Below, in pieces: positions 9,332-19,214 of a stretch of 64,000 nucleotides of DNA; within the stretch, counting starts at the first letter, position 1; every line of letters begins with the position of its first letter. The translations under genes were made by a program, and so were the position numbers. The DNA is from an uncultured Candidatus Rokubacteria bacterium (GTDB lineage Bacteria > Methylomirabilota > Methylomirabilia > Rokubacteriales > CSP1-6): assembly GCA_963762145.1 (NCBI GenBank), contig CAVXJS010000009.1, positions 416,001 to 480,000 of the forward strand, in the 5' to 3' direction. A model generated the notes under the pieces. It made no database searches and was not told the DNA's origin. It saw only the letters and a list, made by a program, of their open reading frames with translations.

Positions 9332-12145
9332 TCACGGTTCGTCGCGTCTCGCCCCGAGGCTTTCGAGGGCCCGTCGCTCCAGCGCCCCCGCGCCCTGATC
9401 CCGCGCGATGGCCAGCGCGGCGTCGAGGCACCCGATGGCGACGCCCCGGTCGTGCCGCGTGGCGAGCAGCAGTACACCCCTCAGCCGATGCAGCTCGGCG
9501 GCGTAGAAGCACTCCCCGCTCGCGTCGACCGCGGCCAGGGCTTCCGTGACGACCTCGAGCGCGGCCTCCGGCCGCCCGGCGGCACCGAGCGCCTCGGCCA
9601 GCAGGCCGAGGAAGTACGTCTTGAACTCCTCCGAGCCCAGGGCGCGGATGGCCGCGAGCCCGTCGCGCATCATGGCGAGCCCGGCGTCGACCTCGCCCGA
9701 CGCGGCGAGGGCCCATCCCCCCGTCATGTCCGCCCAGGCCTGCAGCTGGACGAAGCCCCGCTCGCGAGCGAGCTCGGCGGCCGCCGCGGCCCGGTCGCGG
9801 GTCGTCCGCCAGTCGCCGCCGAGCTGATGCACGCGGGCTCCGTAGAGCAGGGCGTGGGCCTCGCTGAAGGGGTGGTCGAGCCGGAGCGCCAGCGCCAGCG
9901 CCTCCTCGCTCTGCCGGGCGGCCGCCGCGGGATGGCCGGAGAGCGCGAGGGCCCAGGCGCCGTGGCCGAGCGCGCAGACCGCCGGGTCGTGATGGCCGTA
10001 GACGGCGGCCAGCGACGCGTGGCGCTCGGGATCGTAGAGGCGGACCGCGCGGGCCGCGTGATCTCGGGCCTCCCCCAGCTCGCCGCGAGCGAAGCCCGTC
10101 GCCCACAACGCGTGATGAGCCTGGATCGAGAACCCCGGGTCGTCGAGTCGCCGCGCCAGCGCGAGGAGGCGCCCGCCGAGGTCGCGCGCCACGTCGATCT
10201 CGCCGCGGCTGCGTCGGAAGAGGAAGAGGCCCCAGAGGACCGGGAACAACCGGGCCGGATCGTCGATCCGCCGGCCGAGCTCCTGCGCCCGCAGGTAGAC
10301 CTGCTCGACCTCGGGCGCGCCCCGCCCCTTCAGGGCCATGAGGGGCCCTCCCAGCCCGATCTGGAGCGCGATCTCCTCCTCGGCCCGCCGCGGAGTGTCC
10401 GGCTCGGTCCGGAGCAGGTCGAGCGCGCGCGTCAGGTACCCCACCGCCTCGCGCGTGGCACTCCGCTGCGTGGCGATCTCGCCGGCGAGGCGCAGATACC
10501 GGACCGCACCCGGCACGTCGCGTCCGCGCTCGAAGTGCGCGGCCAGCTCCGTCGCGATCTCGGGGCCCCGTGGGCCGAGGCCGATCTCGAGCCGCCGGCC
10601 GATCCGGCGGTGCAGCTCCACGCGGCGTCCGGTCGGGGTGCGCTCGTAGACGACCTCCTGATGGAGGGCGTGACGGAACCCGTAGCGCCCGGCCACCGTC
10701 CCGTCCGGCCACGTCTCGGCGCCGTGCGACGTCAGGAAGGAGCCGGGCCGAGCCAGCTCGGCGCAGCCGCGCTCGACGTCATCGAGGCCGAGCTCCTCCG
10801 CGGCCGCGACGGTGGCGGCGGAGAACTCGACGCCGGCCGCGCCCGCCGCCTCGAGGAGCCGGCGCTGCGGAGCGGGCAGGCGGTCGAGCTCGTGACCGAT
10901 CAGCCGCCGCACGTCGTCGGGAATGGCGATGTGGACGGCCTCGGGGCCGCCCGTGAAGGCCCAGCCGCCGGCGCGCTCGACCAGGACCGCGCGCCGCTCG
11001 AGGTCGTCCGCGACGCTGGTGACGAACAGCGGGTTACCGCCGGTGCGCTGATGGATCAGCGCGGCCAGCCCGCCAGGCGGGCCGGCGCCGGGAAAACGGC
11101 GCTCCAGGTACGCGCCCACCGCCGTCTCGTCCAGGCGGGCCAGCGCCACCTCGCGGCACTGCCCGCGCACCTTCAGCTCGTCCTTGGTCGCCTCGATCGG
11201 ATGCCCCCGGGCCAGAGCTTCTCCCGGTCGGTACGAGGCAAGCACCAGCACCCGTGCCGGCCCGGGGCGCCGCGCCAGGTACGCGAGCCAGTCCACCGTC
11301 GAGGGACCGGCCCAGTGCAGATCCTCGAGCCACAGGATCAGGGGCGCGTCGGCCCCCAGCATCTCCACGGCCTCGGCCAGCTCGCGCAGCATCCGATCGC
11401 GCGTGACGCCGGCCACGTGCCGCTCGAGCGCTCGGTGCTCCGCGACGCCCAGCACCGAGGGCATCTGGGCGAGCCACGTCGGGGCGTGCTGGCGGAGCAG
11501 GCGGACGACGGCCTGCCCGCCCGGCTCGCGGCAGAGGCGGGTCATGGCTTCCAGGAGGGGCAGGTACGCCTCGCCCGCCCCGTGGGTCTCGACGCATCGA
11601 CCCTGCCCGACGCGAAGCCCGTCGCCGTGGGCGGCCTCCGTCAGGAACGCCGCGACGGCCGTCGTCTTGCCGATCCCGGGCTCGCCGGTGACGAAGACGA
11701 TCTGCCGGCTCCCGCCCCTGGACCGGGCCAGGCACGCGCGCAGCTCGGCCAGCTCGCAGTCACGACCCACGACCAGCGCAGGCGGCGTCGGCGCCGCGAA
11801 CGAGTCACCTCCCGGCCTCTCGAGGGCCGACCCCGTGCGAGCGACGAAACGGTAGCCGCGGCGGTGGCGCGTCTCGATGAAGCGGGGGCGCCGGGCGTCG
11901 TCCTCGAGCGCGCGGCGGAGCTCCTGGATGCACGCGGTGAGCGCCCCGTCACCGACGACGGTATCCTGCCAGACCGACCGGAACAGCTCGTCGCGCGTCA
12001 CCGGCTCACCGGCGTGCTCGATCAGCGCGGCCAGCACCGCCGCCGATCGCGGCGTGAGCTTGACCTCGCGCCGGCCGGCCCACAGCCGCCCGGAGCGAGG
12101 GTCGAAGCGGTGACGACCGAAGCTAACCTCCTGTCCGATCAGCAT
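9332..12145 (-). CDS. OmpR-type wHTH + STAND AAA ATPase + TPR regulator
   Basis: ELRRALEDD..FIETRHRRGYRF; Walker A GEPGIGKT; LEDLHW; GGNPLF; helical repeats. Confidence 0.92.
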   Translation of the reverse strand: MLIGQEVSFGRHRFDPRSGRLWAGRREVKLTPRSAAVLAALIEHAGEPVTRDELFRSVWQDTVVGDGALTACIQELRRALEDDARRPRFIETRHRRGYRFVARTGSALERPGGDSFAAPTPPALVVGRDCELAELRACLARSRGGSRQIVFVTGEPGIGKTTAVAAFLTEAAHGDGLRVGQGRCVETHGAGEAYLPLLEAMTRLCREPGGQAVVRLLRQHAPTWLAQMPSVLGVAEHRALERHVAGVTRDRMLRELAEAVEMLGADAPLILWLEDLHWAGPSTVDWLAYLARRPGPARVLVLASYRPGEALARGHPIEATKDELKVRGQCREVALARLDETAVGAYLERRFPGAGPPGGLAALIHQRTGGNPLFVTSVADDLERRAVLVERAGGWAFTGGPEAVHIAIPDDVRRLIGHELDRLPAPQRRLLEAAGAAGVEFSAATVAAAEELGLDDVERGCAELARPGSFLTSHGAETWPDGTVAGRYGFRHALHQEVVYERTPTGRRVELHRRIGRRLEIGLGPRGPEIATELAAHFERGRDVPGAVRYLRLAGEIATQRSATREAVGYLTRALDLLRTEPDTPRRAEEEIALQIGLGGPLMALKGRGAPEVEQVYLRAQELGRRIDDPARLFPVLWGLFLFRRSRGEIDVARDLGGRLLALARRLDDPGFSIQAHHALWATGFARGELGEARDHAARAVRLYDPERHASLAAVYGHHDPAVCALGHGAWALALSGHPAAAARQSEEALALALRLDHPFSEAHALLYGARVHQLGGDWRTTRDRAAAAAELARERGFVQLQAWADMTGGWALAASGEVDAGLAMMRDGLAAIRALGSEEFKTYFLGLLAEALGAAGRPEAALEVVTEALAAVDASGECFYAAELHRLRGVLLLATRHDRGVAIGCLDAALAIARDQGAGALERRALESLGARRDEP

Positions 12146-13024: not shown

Positions 13025-13040
13025 CAACCCCTCAGTTGAT

Positions 13041-13118
13041 TGGCGGGCTCGACGGGACTTGAACCCGCGACCTCTGGATTGACAGTCCAGTGTGCTAACC
13101 AGGCTGCACCACGAGCCC
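13041..13118 (-). tRNA. tRNA-Asp(GTC)
   Basis: Cloverleaf GGGCTCG/CGAGCCC acceptor, CTGGA-CTGTCAA-TCCAG anticodon arm, GGTTCAAGT T-loop, G discriminator, CCA. Confidence 0.97.
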
Positions 13119-13161
13119 GCAACGAGAACGCATCTTTATACCACGCGGCCTCCCGGCCTGT

Positions 13162-13758
13162 CTATCCGCCCACCGCCGACGGCCGCGGGGCACACTCGAG
13201 GCCGGCCGTCCAGACGAGCTGCCGGGGATAGCGGCGCAGCAGGTCGGCGATCTCGTCGCACGGGGGCCGGTGGCCGAGCAGATCCTCACCGGGAGACCGG
13301 AGCAGCCGGCGGTGGACGTTGAGCAGGTAGCTATAGACCATGCGCAGGGCCTGATCCTCCGGCACCTGACGCACCCAGACCAGGATCTCCACTGCCGTGG
13401 CGTTGGCGTCGAGCTCCCGCTGCTCGCGCTCGCGCCGGCGGGCGTCGTTGGTGGCGCCGGCCAGAGGCGCGTCGTGGCCCAGGACGTAGTGGGCCAGCTC
13501 GTGGGCGACGATGGCGTCGCGGAACTCCGAGCTCAGCACCAGGCGGTTCACCGCGAAGAAGCCGCGTCGGTAGGACCCGACCGGGCTGTCCGGGTCATGG
13601 CTCACCAGCACGTGGATGGGCTGCAGCCCGTAGCGACGGGCGGTCTCGTCCGCGAAGGCGCGCACCTCGTCGAGGCTCCGGTCCTGCCCCGGGGTCATCG
13701 TCGAGCAGGCGGCCAGCGCGACCGTCCCGACGAGCCCCGCCAGCCGTGACGCCCTCAT
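13162..13758 (-). CDS. M48-like zinc metalloprotease lipoprotein
   Basis: Lipobox LAAC; AHELAH; ELDAN. Confidence 0.85.
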   Translation of the reverse strand: MRASRLAGLVGTVALAACSTMTPGQDRSLDEVRAFADETARRYGLQPIHVLVSHDPDSPVGSYRRGFFAVNRLVLSSEFRDAIVAHELAHYVLGHDAPLAGATNDARRREREQRELDANATAVEILVWVRQVPEDQALRMVYSYLLNVHRRLLRSPGEDLLGHRPPCDEIADLLRRYPRQLVWTAGLECAPRPSAVGG

Positions 13759-13797
13759 GGCGGAAGTCTAGCAAACAGGGCAGAATGTGGCTCGCCA

Positions 13798-15558
13798 TGA
13801 CGACGCCCACGACGACCCCGACGATTCCATCAACCCTCCGCAGCCGCAACTGGTTCGCCCCGAAGAACCTCGACGGCTTCATGCACCGCGCGTATCTCAA
13901 GGCCGAGGGCTTCAGCGACGCGGTCTTCGACGGCCGCCCGGTGATCGGGATCTGCAACTCCTGGTCGGAGCTGAACAACTGCAACGCCCACCTGCGGCAG
14001 GTGGCGGAGGCGGTCAAGCGCGGGGTATGGAGCGCGGGCGGCTTCCCGCTCGAGTTCCCGGTGATCTCGCTCGGCGAGATCCTGATGAAGCCGACCACGA
14101 TGCTCTTCCGCAACCTCATGGCGATGGACGTCGAGGAGTGCATCCGCGCCTATCCCCTGGACTCGGTCGTGCTGCTCGCCGCGTGCGACAAGACCACGCC
14201 CGCGATGCTGATGGGCGCGGCCTCCGCGGACGTGCCCGCGATCATGGTCACGGGCGGGCCGATGCTGCGGGGCATGTGGTGCAACCAGGAGCTCGGCTCG
14301 GGCACGGACGCGCGCAAGATGTGGGCGCAGCGCCGGGCCGGCGAGATCACCGACGAGGTGATGGCCGAGGTCGAGGCGTGCCTCTCGCGCTCGAGCGGCC
14401 ACTGCATGGTGATGGGCACCGCCTCCACGATGGCCGCGATGGCCGAGACGCTCGGCCTGGCGCTGCCGGGCAACGCGGCCATCCCCGCGGCGGACTCGCG
14501 ACGCCTGGCGCTGGCCGAGATGTCCGGCCGCCGCGCGGTGGAGATGGCGCTGGCGCGCGGGCCCAAGCCGTCGGAGATCCTCACCGCGGCGGCCTTCGAC
14601 AACGCGATCCGCGCGGACATGGCGCTGGGCGGCTCCACGAACGCGATCGTGCACCTGGTGGCGCTCGCCGGCCGCGCGGGCGTGCCGCTGCCGCTGCGCC
14701 GCTTCGACGAGCTCTCGCGCACCACGCCGCTGCTGGCCAACGTGCGGCCCTCGGGCAAGCACCTGATGGAGGACTTCTACTACGCGGGCGGCGTGCCCGC
14801 GGTGCTGCGCGAGCTGCTGCCGATGCTGGACGGCAGCGCCCTCGCGGTGAACGGCAAGACCCTGCGGGAGAACGTGGCGGACGCGCCCTGCCACGACCCG
14901 GACATCATCCGGCCGCTCTCGCTGCCGCTCCAGCCCGAGGGCGGCACCGTGATCCTCACCGGCAATCTCTGCCCCGGCGGCGCCGTCCTCAAGCAGTCGG
15001 CCGCCTCCCCGCACCTGATGGTCCATCGAGGCCGCGCGGTGGTCTTCGAGGATCATCTCGATCTCGAGCGGCGCATCGACGACCCCTCGCTGCCCATCGA
15101 CGAGAATTCGGTGCTGGTGCTCAAGCACGCCGGCCCGAAGGGCGGCCCCGGCATGCCCGAGTGGGGCGCCGCGCCGGTGCCGGCGCGCCTGCTGAAGGCG
15201 GGCGTGAAGGACATGGTGCGCATCTCGGACGCGCGCATGAGCGGCACCTCCTACGGCACCGTGGTGCTCCACGTCACGCCGGAGTCCGCGGTGGGCGGCC
15301 CGCTCGCGCTCGTGAAGCAGGGCGACGAGATCGAGCTGAACGTGCCGGAGCGCCGGCTGACGCTCCGAGTGATCCGACGAGGAGATCGCGCGCCGGCGCG
15401 CGGCGTGGACGCCGCGGCCGGACGGCGTCACCAGCGGCTATCTCCGCATGTTCCTCGACCACGTGCTGCAGGCCGACGAGGGCGTGGACTTCGACTTCCT
15501 GCGCGGCCGGCGGCCGGTGGTGGACGAGGACACCGCGCACGGCTCGAGGCTCGCCTGA
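13798..15558 (+). CDS. IlvD/Edd family dehydratase (sugar-acid dehydratase-like), one frameshift near 15370
   Basis: NCNAH, ACDKT, HCMVMGTAST, GGSTN, DARMSGT; C-terminus VLQADEGVDFDFL in the shifted frame. Confidence 0.9.
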
Positions 15559-15559
15559 G

Positions 15560-16806
15560 ATGGCGGCCGGATCGCCAACCGCCGCCTCCACCGCCGACGC
15601 GGTCGTCATCGGCTCGGGCGCCTTCGGCGCCTCCACCGCCTATCACCTGGCGAAGCGCGGCTTCAAGGTCGCGCTGGTGGACCAGCACGCGCTGGGCTCG
15701 CAGACCTCGCCGCGCGCGGCCGGGCTCACGAGCAAGGCCGACACGATGCCCACTATGGCGCGGCCTGCGTCACGAGGCCTGCGAGGCCTTCGAGCGCTTC
15801 GAGACCGAGATGGGGCGCACGGTGGACTTCCACCGCTCGGGCAGCCTGCGCGCGGCGTACACCGACGCGGCGGTGGAGCGGGTGCGCATCGCGCGGCTCG
15901 AGACCGCGACGAAGCTCGGCATCGAGGCGCGAGCTCGTCGACGCCGCGGAGGCCGAGCGGCTCGCGCCCCACTTCAAGCCGGGCGCGGCGCGCGCGATCC
16001 TGCACGTGCCGAGCGACGGCTGGGTGGATCCCGGCCAAGGTCGCGATCGGCTTCGTCACCCGCGCCGGCGAGCTGGGCGCGCGGCTGCTCCCCTTCACGC
16101 CCGCGCTGCGAGCTCCTGCAGAGCGAGGGCGGCCGCGCCACCGGCGTCGTGACCCCGCGCGGGCGAGATCAGCGCGCCGGTGGTGGTGGACGCGGCCGGC
16201 GCGCTGGACCGCGCGCGTGGCCGCGGGCGCGGGCATCGCGCTGCCGCTGGTTCCCGTGCGCCATCAGCTCTTCATCACCGAGCCGATCGCCGGGCGTGGA
16301 GCCGCTGCAGCCCATCGTGCGGCTGGTCGAGGCGAGCGTGTACGTGCGCTACGAGCAGGGCGGGCTGCTCTTCGGCGGCTACGAGGACGCGCCCGCGCGT
16401 GCTCGGGCGCGAGGGCCTGCCGCCGGGCTTCCAGATCGCCGCGCTCGAGCTGGACCTGGGCGTCCTGCGCGCGCTGGTGACGAGGTGGCGGACGCACTTC
16501 CCGGCCCTGCGCGACGCGAAGATCGCGGTGCACCGGGGCGGCGCGCCCACCATGACGCCCGACGGCCGGCCCATCGTGGGCCGCGTGCCCGGCCTCGACG
16601 GCCTCTACGTGGCCTCGGGCTGCTGCGTGGGCGGGCTCAGCCTCTCCCCCGCCGCGGGCCGCGCGCTCGCCGACCTGATCGTGGACGGCAAGAGCGATCC
16701 GGATCTGGCCCCGATCTCGGTCGAGCGCTTCGCCGACGCCTCCCGCGACCCGGCCGCCCTCGAGGCGGCCTGCGTGGCGCAGTACGCGCGCCGCTACACC
16801 CACTGA
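15560..16806 (+). CDS. FAD-dependent oxidoreductase (DAO/sarcosine oxidase beta-like), several frameshifts
   Basis: VVIGSGAFGASTAYHL; TMTPDGRPIVG; GLSLSPAAG spread over three frames. Confidence 0.82.
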
Positions 16807-16825
16807 CCTGCAAGGAGAACGATCC

Positions 16826-17174
16826 ATGGCCACGAGTCGACTGGAGCTATCACCGCAACGGCTGAATGACCTGTGCCAAGACGCAAGGGTTCCTTGCCAA
16901 GCACAAGGTGGCGGTGACCGAGCAGGCCGACGCGAAGAAGGCCACCATCAAGGGCGCGGCCGCGCTCGGCGTGCTCGACGGCGTGGACGAGCTGTACGTG
17001 GCGAAGGGCAAGAAGATCGAGCACGTCGATCTGCAGGCGGCGAAGCCGGACCGCGCCACGCTGCTGGCGCTCCTGCTGGGCCCGACCGGCAACCTGCGCG
17101 CGCCCACGCTGCGAAAGGGCCGCACCCTCATCGTCGGCTTCGAGGAAGCGACCTACAAGAAGGTGCTCACCTAG
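16826..17174 (+). CDS. ArsC/Spx-like selenoprotein (Sec at TGA 16863-16865)
   Basis: AAGGAG RBS before ATG 16826 (one extra base nearby); WSYHRNG-TGA-MTC; GPTGNLRAPT..LIVGF. Confidence 0.82.
16869..16909 (+). promoter_or_regulatory. Putative bacterial SECIS element
   Basis: Upper stem GCAAGG-GTT-CCTTGC with loop 23 nt after UGA; lower stem TGTGC/GCACA. Confidence 0.7.
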
Positions 17175-17180
17175 CTAGGT

Positions 17181-17243
17181 GGGGTCAGGTCTTGAATTAC
17201 GACATTTGCCGCGGCGCGATGTCGTATTTCAAGACCTGACCCC
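17181..17243. repeat. REP-like palindromic element, copy 1
   Basis: GGGGTCAGGTCTTGAA...TTCAAGACCTGACCCC with inner TACGACAT/ATGTCGTA stem. Confidence 0.85.
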
Positions 17244-17247
17244 GTCG

Positions 17248-17550
17248 CTACTTGGCCGCGGCGCTCCGGGGGTCGAGGTTCTCTGCCAGGCACTGGCCCC
17301 GCATCGTCCGGTCGGCATCGGCGGCCTCGAACGAGGCCCCAGCAGAACTCGCGACCACCCGCAAACCCATCTTCTCGAGGGCCTGGCCCTGCTGGCGCAT
17401 GGCGGTGGCGCACTCCTCGCGTGTCGGGAAGGTGCTCACGGAATCCCAGGGCGAATCCCCGCCCATCATCCACAGCACCCAGCCGCCGTCGGCTGAGGCT
17501 GAAGTGGTCAGGCTGAGCAGCACAAGCGTTATGAGAGTCAGGCGGCGCAT
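17248..17550 (-). CDS. Small exported hypothetical protein
   Basis: GAGGAGG RBS; signal peptide ending ASA; WVLW motif; two Cys. Confidence 0.7.
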   Translation of the reverse strand: MRRLTLITLVLLSLTTSASADGGWVLWMMGGDSPWDSVSTFPTREECATAMRQQGQALEKMGLRVVASSAGASFEAADADRTMRGQCLAENLDPRSAAAK

Positions 17551-17671
17551 GGAAGAGGTCCTCCTCATCCAATCCTAGCCGGGGGTGGAATTTTGGCCGA
17601 TCCCGACGCGCGGTTGCTGCTAACCACCAGGAAAGTCTGAATTGCCACCGCCCACCGGGGAGGGTGAGGGT

Positions 17672-19149
17672 CTACGGCAGCAGCACCAGAGGCCCGGTGG
17701 TGCGGCGTCCCTCCAGGTCGCGGTGGGCCTCGGCGGCGGCGGCGAGCGGATAGCGGTGGCGGATGTCCAGGCGGATCACGCCAGTCGCGGAACGCATCGA
17801 AGGTCTGCCGCGCGATCTCGTCGAGCGCGGCACGCTCGGCCGTGTAGTGGAAGAGCACGGGCCGCGTCACCGTGGCCGACTTGGCCGACAGTGTCTCGGG
17901 GCCGATCGGCGGGAGCGGGCCGCTCGCCTGGCCGTAGCTCACCCAGTGGCCGCAGAGCGCGAGGGCCTCCAGGTTCTCCTCCATCGCCGCGCGGCCGAGC
18001 CCGTCGTAGATCACGTCGGCGCCGCGGCCGCCGGTAGCTCCCTTGACCGCGGCCGCGAAGCGGTAGTCGCGGCCGACCAGCGGCAGCTCGCAGCCGTTCG
18101 CGCGCGCGAGCCGCGCCTTGTCCTCGCTCGAGACGGTGCCGATCACGCGCGCGCCGAGGGCCTTCGCCCACTGGCACAGGAAGCAGACCGACGCCGCCCG
18201 CGGCCGCGTGCACCAGCACCGTCTCGCCCGCGCGCACGCGATGCGTGCGGTGGAGCAGGTACGCGGCGGTCATGCCCTTCAGCATCAGCGCGGCGGCGCG
18301 TCTCGTCGTCCACGTCGTCCGGCAGCACCACGACCTGGTCGGCCGGCATCGTGCGCGCGCTCGCGTAGGCGCCGGGCGGCGCGCACGCGTAGGCGACGCG
18401 GTCGCCGGGCAGGAGGTGCGCGACGCCGTCACCCACGTCCACCACCACCCCCGCCGCCTCCATGCCGAGCGGCGCGGGAGGCTCGATCATGCGATAGAGG
18501 CCGGCGCGCACGTAGACGTCGATGTAGTTGACGCCGACCGCGGTCTGCCGGATGCGCACCTCGCCCGGGCCGGGCGGGCGCGCGGGCAGCGGCTGATAGC
18601 GCAGCACCTCGGGGCCGCCGAAGGCGGTGGCCACCACGCCCTGCCCCGGCATCGACGCCCCCGACGCGAGCGTGGGCGAGGCCGTCCGCGGGCGATCCGG
18701 CGCACGGGCGCGACGCGCCGCAGATAGGCGCGCAGGCCCTCGAAGCCGCCTTCGTAGACCCCGGTGCCGACCATGTCGGCCAGCTCGCGCTCGCGGCCCG
18801 GCGGCGCGTCGAAGGTGGACTGCCAGTGCCAGAAGGTGCGCTCCCCGTCGGTCACCCGCTTGAGCTGGAGCGTGGCCACGTACCGGCGGAGGGGCACGCT
18901 CGCGTCGAGGATGCAGTAGGTGGAGACGTGGTCCCGGTCGGAGAGTGCCAGGAGCTGCTCGCGGATGCGGTTGCCGTCGCGCAGCGTGAACCGGCGCACG
19001 CAGCCGATCTGGTCGGACGGCTCCCCGCCCTCGATCTCCGACTCCGCCACCACCGGGTGCCACGCAGTGTGGCTGTTGAAGTCGCGGAGCACCGCCCACA
19101 CGCGCTCGATCGGCGCGTCGATCACCGCCGACCGCGTGACCCGAATCAT
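17672..19149 (-). CDS. SRPBCC (polyketide cyclase/MxaD-like) + NADPH:quinone oxidoreductase fusion, frameshifted
   Basis: IDAPIERVWAVLRDFN; GVNYIDVY; HAAAGGVG; AHRDLEGRRTTGPLVLLP across frames. Confidence 0.8.
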
Positions 19150-19211
19150 GGGGTCAGGTCTTACATTCCGACATTGTCGCGTCGCGTTGTCACAATGTAA
19201 GACCTGACCCC
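19150..19211. repeat. REP-like palindromic element, copy 2
   Basis: GGGGTCAGGTCTTACATT...AATGTAAGACCTGACCCC. Confidence 0.85.
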
Positions 19212-19214
19212 GGG

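Follow-up and report, generated by a model that had tools for sequence, protein, structure and literature searches.

Positions 16826-17174 (+) of the window, by which we mean the whole 64,000-nucleotide stretch of DNA from an uncultured Candidatus Rokubacteria bacterium that was analysed here, most probably hold a gene of 115 codons that belongs to the curated NF041106 family ('ArsC family (seleno)protein'), with a UGA selenocysteine (Sec) codon and a displaced start codon; we give this reading a probability of about 80%. Translated in frame 0 with the TGA read as U, the window yields PLTCKENDPWPRVDWSYHRNG-U-MTCAKTQGFLAKHKV... up to a TAG stop codon at 17172-74, and its DNA reads ...cactgacctgcAAGGAGaacgatccATGgccacgaGTCGACTGGAGCTATCACCGCAACGGCTGAATGACCTGTGCC.... 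ORF callers cut the gene at the UGA, whereby strand 1 and the active-site selenocysteine are lost. The finding is mainly an annotation fix, and nothing in the window alters existing knowledge of selenoproteins. Indeed, the original prediction had called this selenoprotein 'hidden', which is true for ORF callers only: NCBI maintains a curated model of the family, and surveys of selenoproteomes list it.

An in-frame TGA within a conserved reading frame

In the table-11 ORF list, the gene begins only at the ATG at 16866 (Table 1). As the original prediction had it, frame 0 nevertheless continues upstream across the TGA at 16863-65 as ...RVDWSYHRNG-U-MTC..., and an AAGGAG at 16812-17 is followed, 8 nt on, by an ATG (16826-28) in frame 2, offset from the gene by one base; sequence and translation agreed on both counts. 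An alternative in-frame start was considered and rejected: frame 0 is without ATG, GTG or TTG over 16807-16862, and its only CTG, at 16803, stands ahead of the Shine-Dalgarno sequence.

Table 1. Coordinates of the putative selenoprotein gene, its elements and its neighbourhood in the window.
Feature	Position	Strand	Remarks
IlvD/Edd-family dehydratase gene	13746..15560	+	frame lost at 15372; ILVD_EDD_N 372.5 bits; ILV_EDD_C only to position 155 of 191; intact in L185
DAO-type FAD-dependent oxidoreductase gene	15563..16806	+	DAO pieces in two frames, split by insertions; intact (408 aa) in L185
Window-private zone of single-base insertions	15372..18714 (about)	.	breaks the IlvD/Edd 3' end, DAO, the selenoprotein start and the Zn-alcohol dehydrogenase
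Shine-Dalgarno sequence AAGGAG	16812..16817	+	8 nt before ATG 16826; GGAG-type sites at the equivalent place in relatives
ATG, presumed true start codon	16826..16828	+	frame 2 in the window; in-frame ATG/GTG in all 37 relatives
Single extra base, within ACGA	16832..16835	+	one codon in relatives (CGA, AGA, AAG, AAA, ACG, others); alignment places the insertion at 16832/16833
Selenoprotein gene body, frame 0	16836..17171	+	V4 to T115 of the 115-residue product; NF041106 match
UGA, predicted selenocysteine codon (U13)	16863..16865	+	with TGT 16872-74 forms U-M-T-C; TGA in 38/38 sequences
SECIS-type apical hairpin GCAAGG-GUU-CCUUGC	16883..16897	+	6 pairs kept in 38/38
Stop codon TAG	17172..17174	+	from sequence and translation
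Zn-alcohol dehydrogenase gene, split by insertions	17568-19099	-	downstream

The read-through product matched NF041106 (ArsC_rel_Se_1) with 140.5 bits over profile positions 1-107 of 107, starting from the V encoded at 16836, where the model's cut-off is 85 bits; a six-frame search of the window's genome with the same profile gave 133.2 bits. When 40 related genomes were searched in six frames, the family was found in 17 of the 20 genomes of the same genus (16 full-length matches and one cut by a contig end), and two genomes of the same family also had full-length matches. Each full-length match contained one in-frame TGA, and the TGA column was identical in the window and all 18 full-length relatives, preceded by [VI]DWSY[HL]R.G. 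Across the phylum, 99 of 251 genomes had a match over the cut-off, with exactly one in-frame TGA in every such case (the set includes one unpublished genome, G233, and no result rests on this genome alone). A further 19 loci from other genera of the phylum showed the layout M/V-x-x-[VI]-D-W-[SR]-Y-H-R-x-G-U-x-x-C.

Together, the 16 same-genus, 2 same-family and 19 other-genera full-length loci make up the 37 relatives used below (38 sequences with the window), to which the window's product is 59-92% identical at the protein level. The first position of the U/C-x-x-C motif was a TGA in all 38 of these same-phylum sequences, and the residues [VI]-D-W-[SR]-Y-H-R-x-G ahead of it were retained while third codon positions varied. 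The homolog alignment at the TGA column that had been proposed as a check thus gave a uniform answer both at the TGA and at the conserved [VI]-D-W upstream, and together with the NF041106 score it bears out the assignment to an ArsC/Spx-fold selenoprotein with U-x-x-C. In 5 of the 37 relatives the same gene ends with a TGA stop codon; TGA is therefore still a stop in these genomes and has not been reassigned.

Could the TGA at 16863-65 simply be the ordinary stop of an upstream frame, with the real gene being the 102-codon ORF from ATG 16866, free of selenocysteine? An ATG does stand directly after the TGA, ORF callers yield 16866-17174, and the shortened product still matches ArsC weakly (19.8 bits). 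We nevertheless regard this as highly improbable, given that the codon after the TGA is AAG, CAG, GGC or GCC rather than ATG in 21 of the 37 relatives, that the nine residues ahead of the TGA are conserved as protein, with a start codon and Shine-Dalgarno sequence 12 codons upstream in 37/37 relatives, and that the NF041106 alignment begins at profile position 1, upstream of the TGA. Moreover, the shortened form would lose both strand 1 and the first of the redox residues.

Several observations on the distribution of the gene accompany these results. Carriers of an exact conserved 32-mer were mostly Candidatus Rokubacteria / Methylomirabilota metagenome-assembled genomes (MAGs). Six gene-bearing contigs (L187, L188, L190, L191, L193 and L195) were found in Verrucomicrobiia, Dormiibacterota, Nitrosotalea, Deferrimicrobiaceae and Limnocylindria MAGs; five of them were 92-94% identical to the window over 180 nt and one, L191, was 71% identical, and all six are probably mis-binned. 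A second, more distant ArsC-like group (~38-52 bits) occurs in the phylum, with one in-frame TGA in many genomes and a few forms that lack the TGA, presumably with Cys (G060:C1:294024, G057:C1:1478942 and G052:C103); the six-frame search found no match to this group in the window's genome.

A short conserved hairpin follows the UGA

Bacterial SECIS elements have a usual spacing window between the UGA and the stem-loop. In the window, a hairpin with the arms GCAAGG (16883-88) and CCUUGC (16892-97) and the loop GUU (16889-91) begins 17 nt after the UGA, its loop G lying 23 nt after the A of the UGA. The fold energy of the 66-nt stretch (MFE -20.0 kcal/mol, against -19.7 +/- 2.8 kcal/mol for shuffles; z = -0.11) was no better than that of shuffled sequence, and the hairpin was therefore judged by conservation and not by energy.

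To this end, 66 nt from 3 nt before the UGA were aligned for the 38 sequences and analysed with RNAalifold, which returned the apical 6-bp hairpin only. All six apical pairs were formed in 38/38 sequences, and four of them were invariant. Pair 27-35 was A:U in 35 sequences and G:U in 3, and pair 29-33 was G:C in 28 and A:U in 10, and never broken. The latter switch is compensatory and combines GGG->GAG (Gly->Glu) with a synonymous TTC->TTT change; its A:U form occurs in loci of three taxonomic families, one genus having both forms. The 3' arm holds the Leu codon CTT in 38/38 sequences, a codon used for only 14 of the 184 leucines encoded by three genes sampled from the window's genome (70% G+C). 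Counting against the hairpin is its size, only 6 bp with a 3-nt loop, and the Rfam search found no family for it. Of the two-tier hairpin with a GUU loop 23 nt past the UGA that the original prediction had described, the apical tier thus stood and the lower one did not: the two lower helices of the window's MFE fold were paired in only 62.8% and 74.7% of cells, and were rejected as part of the element as unconserved in the 38-sequence alignment. A stem-loop shortly 3' of the UGA is thus present at 16883-97, and its apical loop has the G that the Fig. 4 legend of PMC1794560 names for bacterial SECIS elements.

The genome encodes a selenocysteine machinery

Searches of the same genome found selA (577.4 bits), selB (363 bits) and tRNA-Sec (69.3 bits; called tRNA-SeC with anticodon TCA by ARAGORN) standing together on the window's own contig, and selD twice in the genome (341.4 and 280.5 bits). 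The two selD genes lie at G000:C11:419505-420437 and G000:C14:136744-137655; one of the two has an in-frame TGA and the other does not, so that the SelD encoded by the TGA-bearing copy is itself a selenoprotein. The original prediction had pointed to a genome without Sec machinery, or to homologs without conservation upstream of the TGA, as what would speak against it; selA, selB, selD and tRNA-Sec were all found, and the upstream residues were conserved.

From these sequence data, we infer that selenocysteine is inserted at the UGA at 16863-65. Translation would begin at ATG 16826 behind the AAGGAG and end at TAG 17172-74, and SelB with Sec-tRNA(Sec), brought in by the 16883-97 hairpin, would decode codon 13 as selenocysteine.

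The start codon is displaced by a window-private insertion

In all 37 relatives, an ATG or GTG stands in frame exactly three codons before [VI]-D-W, and the same in-frame start was present in 19/19 loci retrieved by the 32-mer, a set that partly overlaps with the 37. The window alone has ten bases, ATGGCCACGA, against nine in the others, with one extra base among 16832-35, between the ATG and the GTC. Past this insertion, the frame stays open for 112 codons, whose protein sequence is up to 92% identical to that of the relatives. An exact 18-mer over the Shine-Dalgarno sequence and the ATG was found at 122 contig loci (60 metagenome, 62 genome), none of them BLAST-similar to the window.

The insertion does not stand alone. 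In an alignment of ten sequences over ~1.85 kb (15346-17174), 12 indel events were private to the window, and in 11 of these the length was not divisible by three; each of the nine relatives had 0-1 private indels, all multiples of three. Compared with the closest relative (L185), 13036-15371 showed only a 6-nt and a 3-nt gap and no frame-breaking indel, against 19 gap events over 15372-16832, of which almost every one is an insertion in the window; comparison with five relatives revealed further private 1-nt insertions at ~17785, 18184, 18298 and 18685-18714. A reference-free analysis of GC3 phase agreed, with 15 changes in 14-20 kb and 0-5 per 2 kb elsewhere; the same scan hints at possible further patches at 4-6 kb, 36-38 kb and 56-58 kb.

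Other soil metagenomes yielded short-read contigs ~96.5-98% identical to the window, and over matching intervals these were shorter than it, with 718 letters on 732 positions (X1) and 645 on 658 (X2). Near the start codon, X1 had 467 letters on 468 positions across 16437-16904, and X9, with one gap, had 151 letters on the 152 positions of 16702-16853. Given that 16832 is not among the indels listed, the base missing in X1 and X9 is consistent with the 16832 site but not pinned to it. A search for sequencing runs holding the window returned none with more than 0.52 of the sampled words.

On the evidence of these alignments, the extra base at 16832-35 is very probably an assembly artefact, and the gene is probably intact in the organism. 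The one-base offset would then come from a single inserted base, one of about 20 in a ~3.3-kb patch. The original prediction's out-of-frame ATG in an error-rich zone was therefore well placed: the insertion is private to the window and the alignments confirm the zone.

Alternatively, the inserted base might be real, and the selenoprotein gene a pseudogene in a locally decaying locus together with DAO, the dehydratase 3' end and the alcohol dehydrogenase. ATG 16826 would then lead only into a 137-residue, Arg/Gly-rich nonsense peptide, in a frame without recognisable content. As sequenced, the ATG is indeed in frame 2, which stays open for 137 codons (16826-17239), and 16832-35 is not among the indels listed for the short-read contigs. 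The indels are also confined to one region: selA and selB on the same contig are intact and without frameshifts, and the errors are therefore patchy, as a real decaying locus would also be. Against this, the roughly 20 events are nearly all 1-nt insertions, with almost no deletions and none of them large, and substitutions are no more frequent than in the intact flank (93.4% identity to L185 over 13036-17174), a pattern that fits consensus errors rather than gene decay. Many of the inserted bases are absent from the 96.5-98% identical contigs of other samples, and the 112 downstream codons remain open and similar to the relatives. We consider a genuine pseudogene unlikely. Still less credible, to the point of being almost negligible, is programmed +1 ribosomal frameshifting that bridges ATG 16826 and GTC 16836: all that speaks for it is that the given sequence can be read only with a +1 shift in the first three codons, whereas the offset occurs in 0/37 relatives and 0/19 32-mer loci, no shift site is conserved, and similar 1-nt insertions litter the neighbouring genes.

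Read as an assembly artefact, the patch makes the window a clear example of 1-nt insertion errors that falsely break at least four neighbouring genes. Even a pipeline that recognises selenoproteins would call this gene a pseudogene, because the one-base insertion hides its true start.

Neighbouring genes

The original prediction had placed a dehydratase and an FAD oxidoreductase upstream of the gene, and both are real, as seen from their Pfam domain matches and their intact counterparts in L185. The stop codon of the upstream gene lies at 16804-06, leaving a stop-to-start gap of 19 nt to the selenoprotein gene in the window. The genes of L185 run from an MFS transporter through the IlvD/Edd dehydratase (590 aa) and the DAO flavoprotein (408 aa) to the selenoprotein, and the window has the identical order. 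At 13 of the 16 same-genus loci, the DAO 3' end immediately precedes the selenoprotein gene, and the remaining three have a nitroreductase or PAS sensor gene upstream. Two loci show variations: at L004 the selenoprotein gene is separated from the DAO end by a nitroreductase gene, and at L011 most of the DAO gene is missing by BLAST, so that the dehydratase end abuts the last ~35 nt of DAO. Further upstream in the window, the opposite strand encodes a large regulator with Trans_reg_C and AAA_16 domains (9335-12145, -) and a Peptidase_M78 (IrrE-like) protein (13165-13758, -).

Beyond the genus, the picture was different. A Pfam neighbour scan, covering 108 of 218 listed open stretches at 13 of 25 loci (4 same-genus and 9 from other genera), found neither DAO nor IlvD/Edd within 1.5 kb in any of the 9 scanned loci of other genera. 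Their neighbours were unrelated and include ABC permease/VanZ, PpoB2, FGE-sulfatase, Fae, photolyase, TspO and 2-thiouracil desulfurase. The linkage to DAO and IlvD/Edd is confined to one genus, and the idea of a redox partner for the dehydratase therefore describes at best a genus-level arrangement. The original prediction's proposal of a redox partner of an Fe-S dehydratase is accordingly supported only by gene order inside a single genus, with DAO or IlvD/Edd near the gene at 0/9 scanned loci of other genera. One could speculate that in this one genus the selenoprotein gene was recruited to the end of the IlvD/Edd and DAO operon and may serve as its dedicated selenol/thiol redox partner, or else that the frameshift is real and the operon is being lost in this strain, but we find this doubtful.

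A palindrome of ~68 nt with arms of ~25 nt, at about 17178-17245, directly follows the selenoprotein stop codon, and another copy lies near 19149-19212. It is a dispersed repeat, with 103 matches on nine contigs of the window's genome (both strands counted), a metagenome contig depth ~10x that of its flanks, and copies after the same gene in L003 and L006. The palindrome looks REP/MITE-like and may act as a terminator. The only matches to Rfam were chance miRNA-model matches to the palindrome at 17177-17246.

Predicted fold and relation to known systems

An AlphaFold2 model, built from the family alignment with Sec as Cys, had a pLDDT of 89.2 and a pTM of 0.83. In the model, strand 1 comes first and the Sec residue immediately precedes helix 1, an arrangement shared with C-x-x-C proteins of the thioredoxin fold. 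The family profile matched Spx (1Z3E) with E = 3.6e-05, the U-x-x-C aligning on the Spx C-x-x-C and U13 on Cys10. A Foldseek search against the PDB gave no match at E <= 0.001, the best being Spx with 1.2e-03 and a TM of 0.55. The product would thus adopt a glutaredoxin/thioredoxin-like fold of the ArsC/Spx/YffB type, with U13-x-x-C16 at the start of helix 1, where it would be expected to cycle between selenol/thiol and selenenylsulfide. We infer a small selenol/thiol-disulfide oxidoreductase. The family name does not imply arsenate reduction.

Compared with Spx of Bacillus subtilis (1Z3E, 3GFK and 6GHB), the model differs by an rmsd of 4.6-5.1 A. The product has 115 residues, and its alignment stops at residue 114 of 132 of Spx, so that the C-terminal tail of Spx is without counterpart. 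The models of the RNA polymerase-binding Spx/MgsR regulators score far under their cut-offs with the product (TIGR01617, 28.1 versus 75.05 bits; NF002459, 20.4 versus 123 bits).

True ArsC proteins generally have a single-Cys motif and not C/U-x-x-C, and in ArsC of plasmid R773 the catalytic Cys is accompanied by a conserved arginine triad. Set against YffB of Pseudomonas aeruginosa (PA3664, 1RW1) and the glutaredoxin-coupled ArsC, the product falls just under the gathering score of Pfam ArsC (PF03960; 23.4 bits, 0.6 bit under the score of 24). Kinship with the ArsC superfamily despite this miss is supported by the profile match to Spx and by the structural comparison.

The family is already known, with ArsC-like UxxC selenoproteins in print since 2006-2008. 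PMC1794560 lists 'ArsC-like' selenoproteins for Desulfotalea and Desulfuromonas, the GOS survey has entries for 'Arsenate reductase (ArsC) 1, UxxS' and 'Arsenate reductase 2, cd03032, UxxC' (PMC2398784), and a 2022 review lists an 'Arsenate reductase-like protein, COG1393, UxxC' (PMC9312934). As described in these entries, the UxxC proteins of the surveys likewise pair an ArsC/Spx-type domain with a selenocysteine that opens the U-x-x-C motif. These ArsC-like UxxC proteins are likely the same family as NF041106. The survey entries come from marine and anaerobe data, in contrast to the window gene, which belongs to a soil lineage. Within NF041106, the gene has the same length (115 aa), U-x-x-C and post-UGA hairpin as the 37 relatives; the protein is without difference, and only the start codon is displaced by one base, in this assembly alone.
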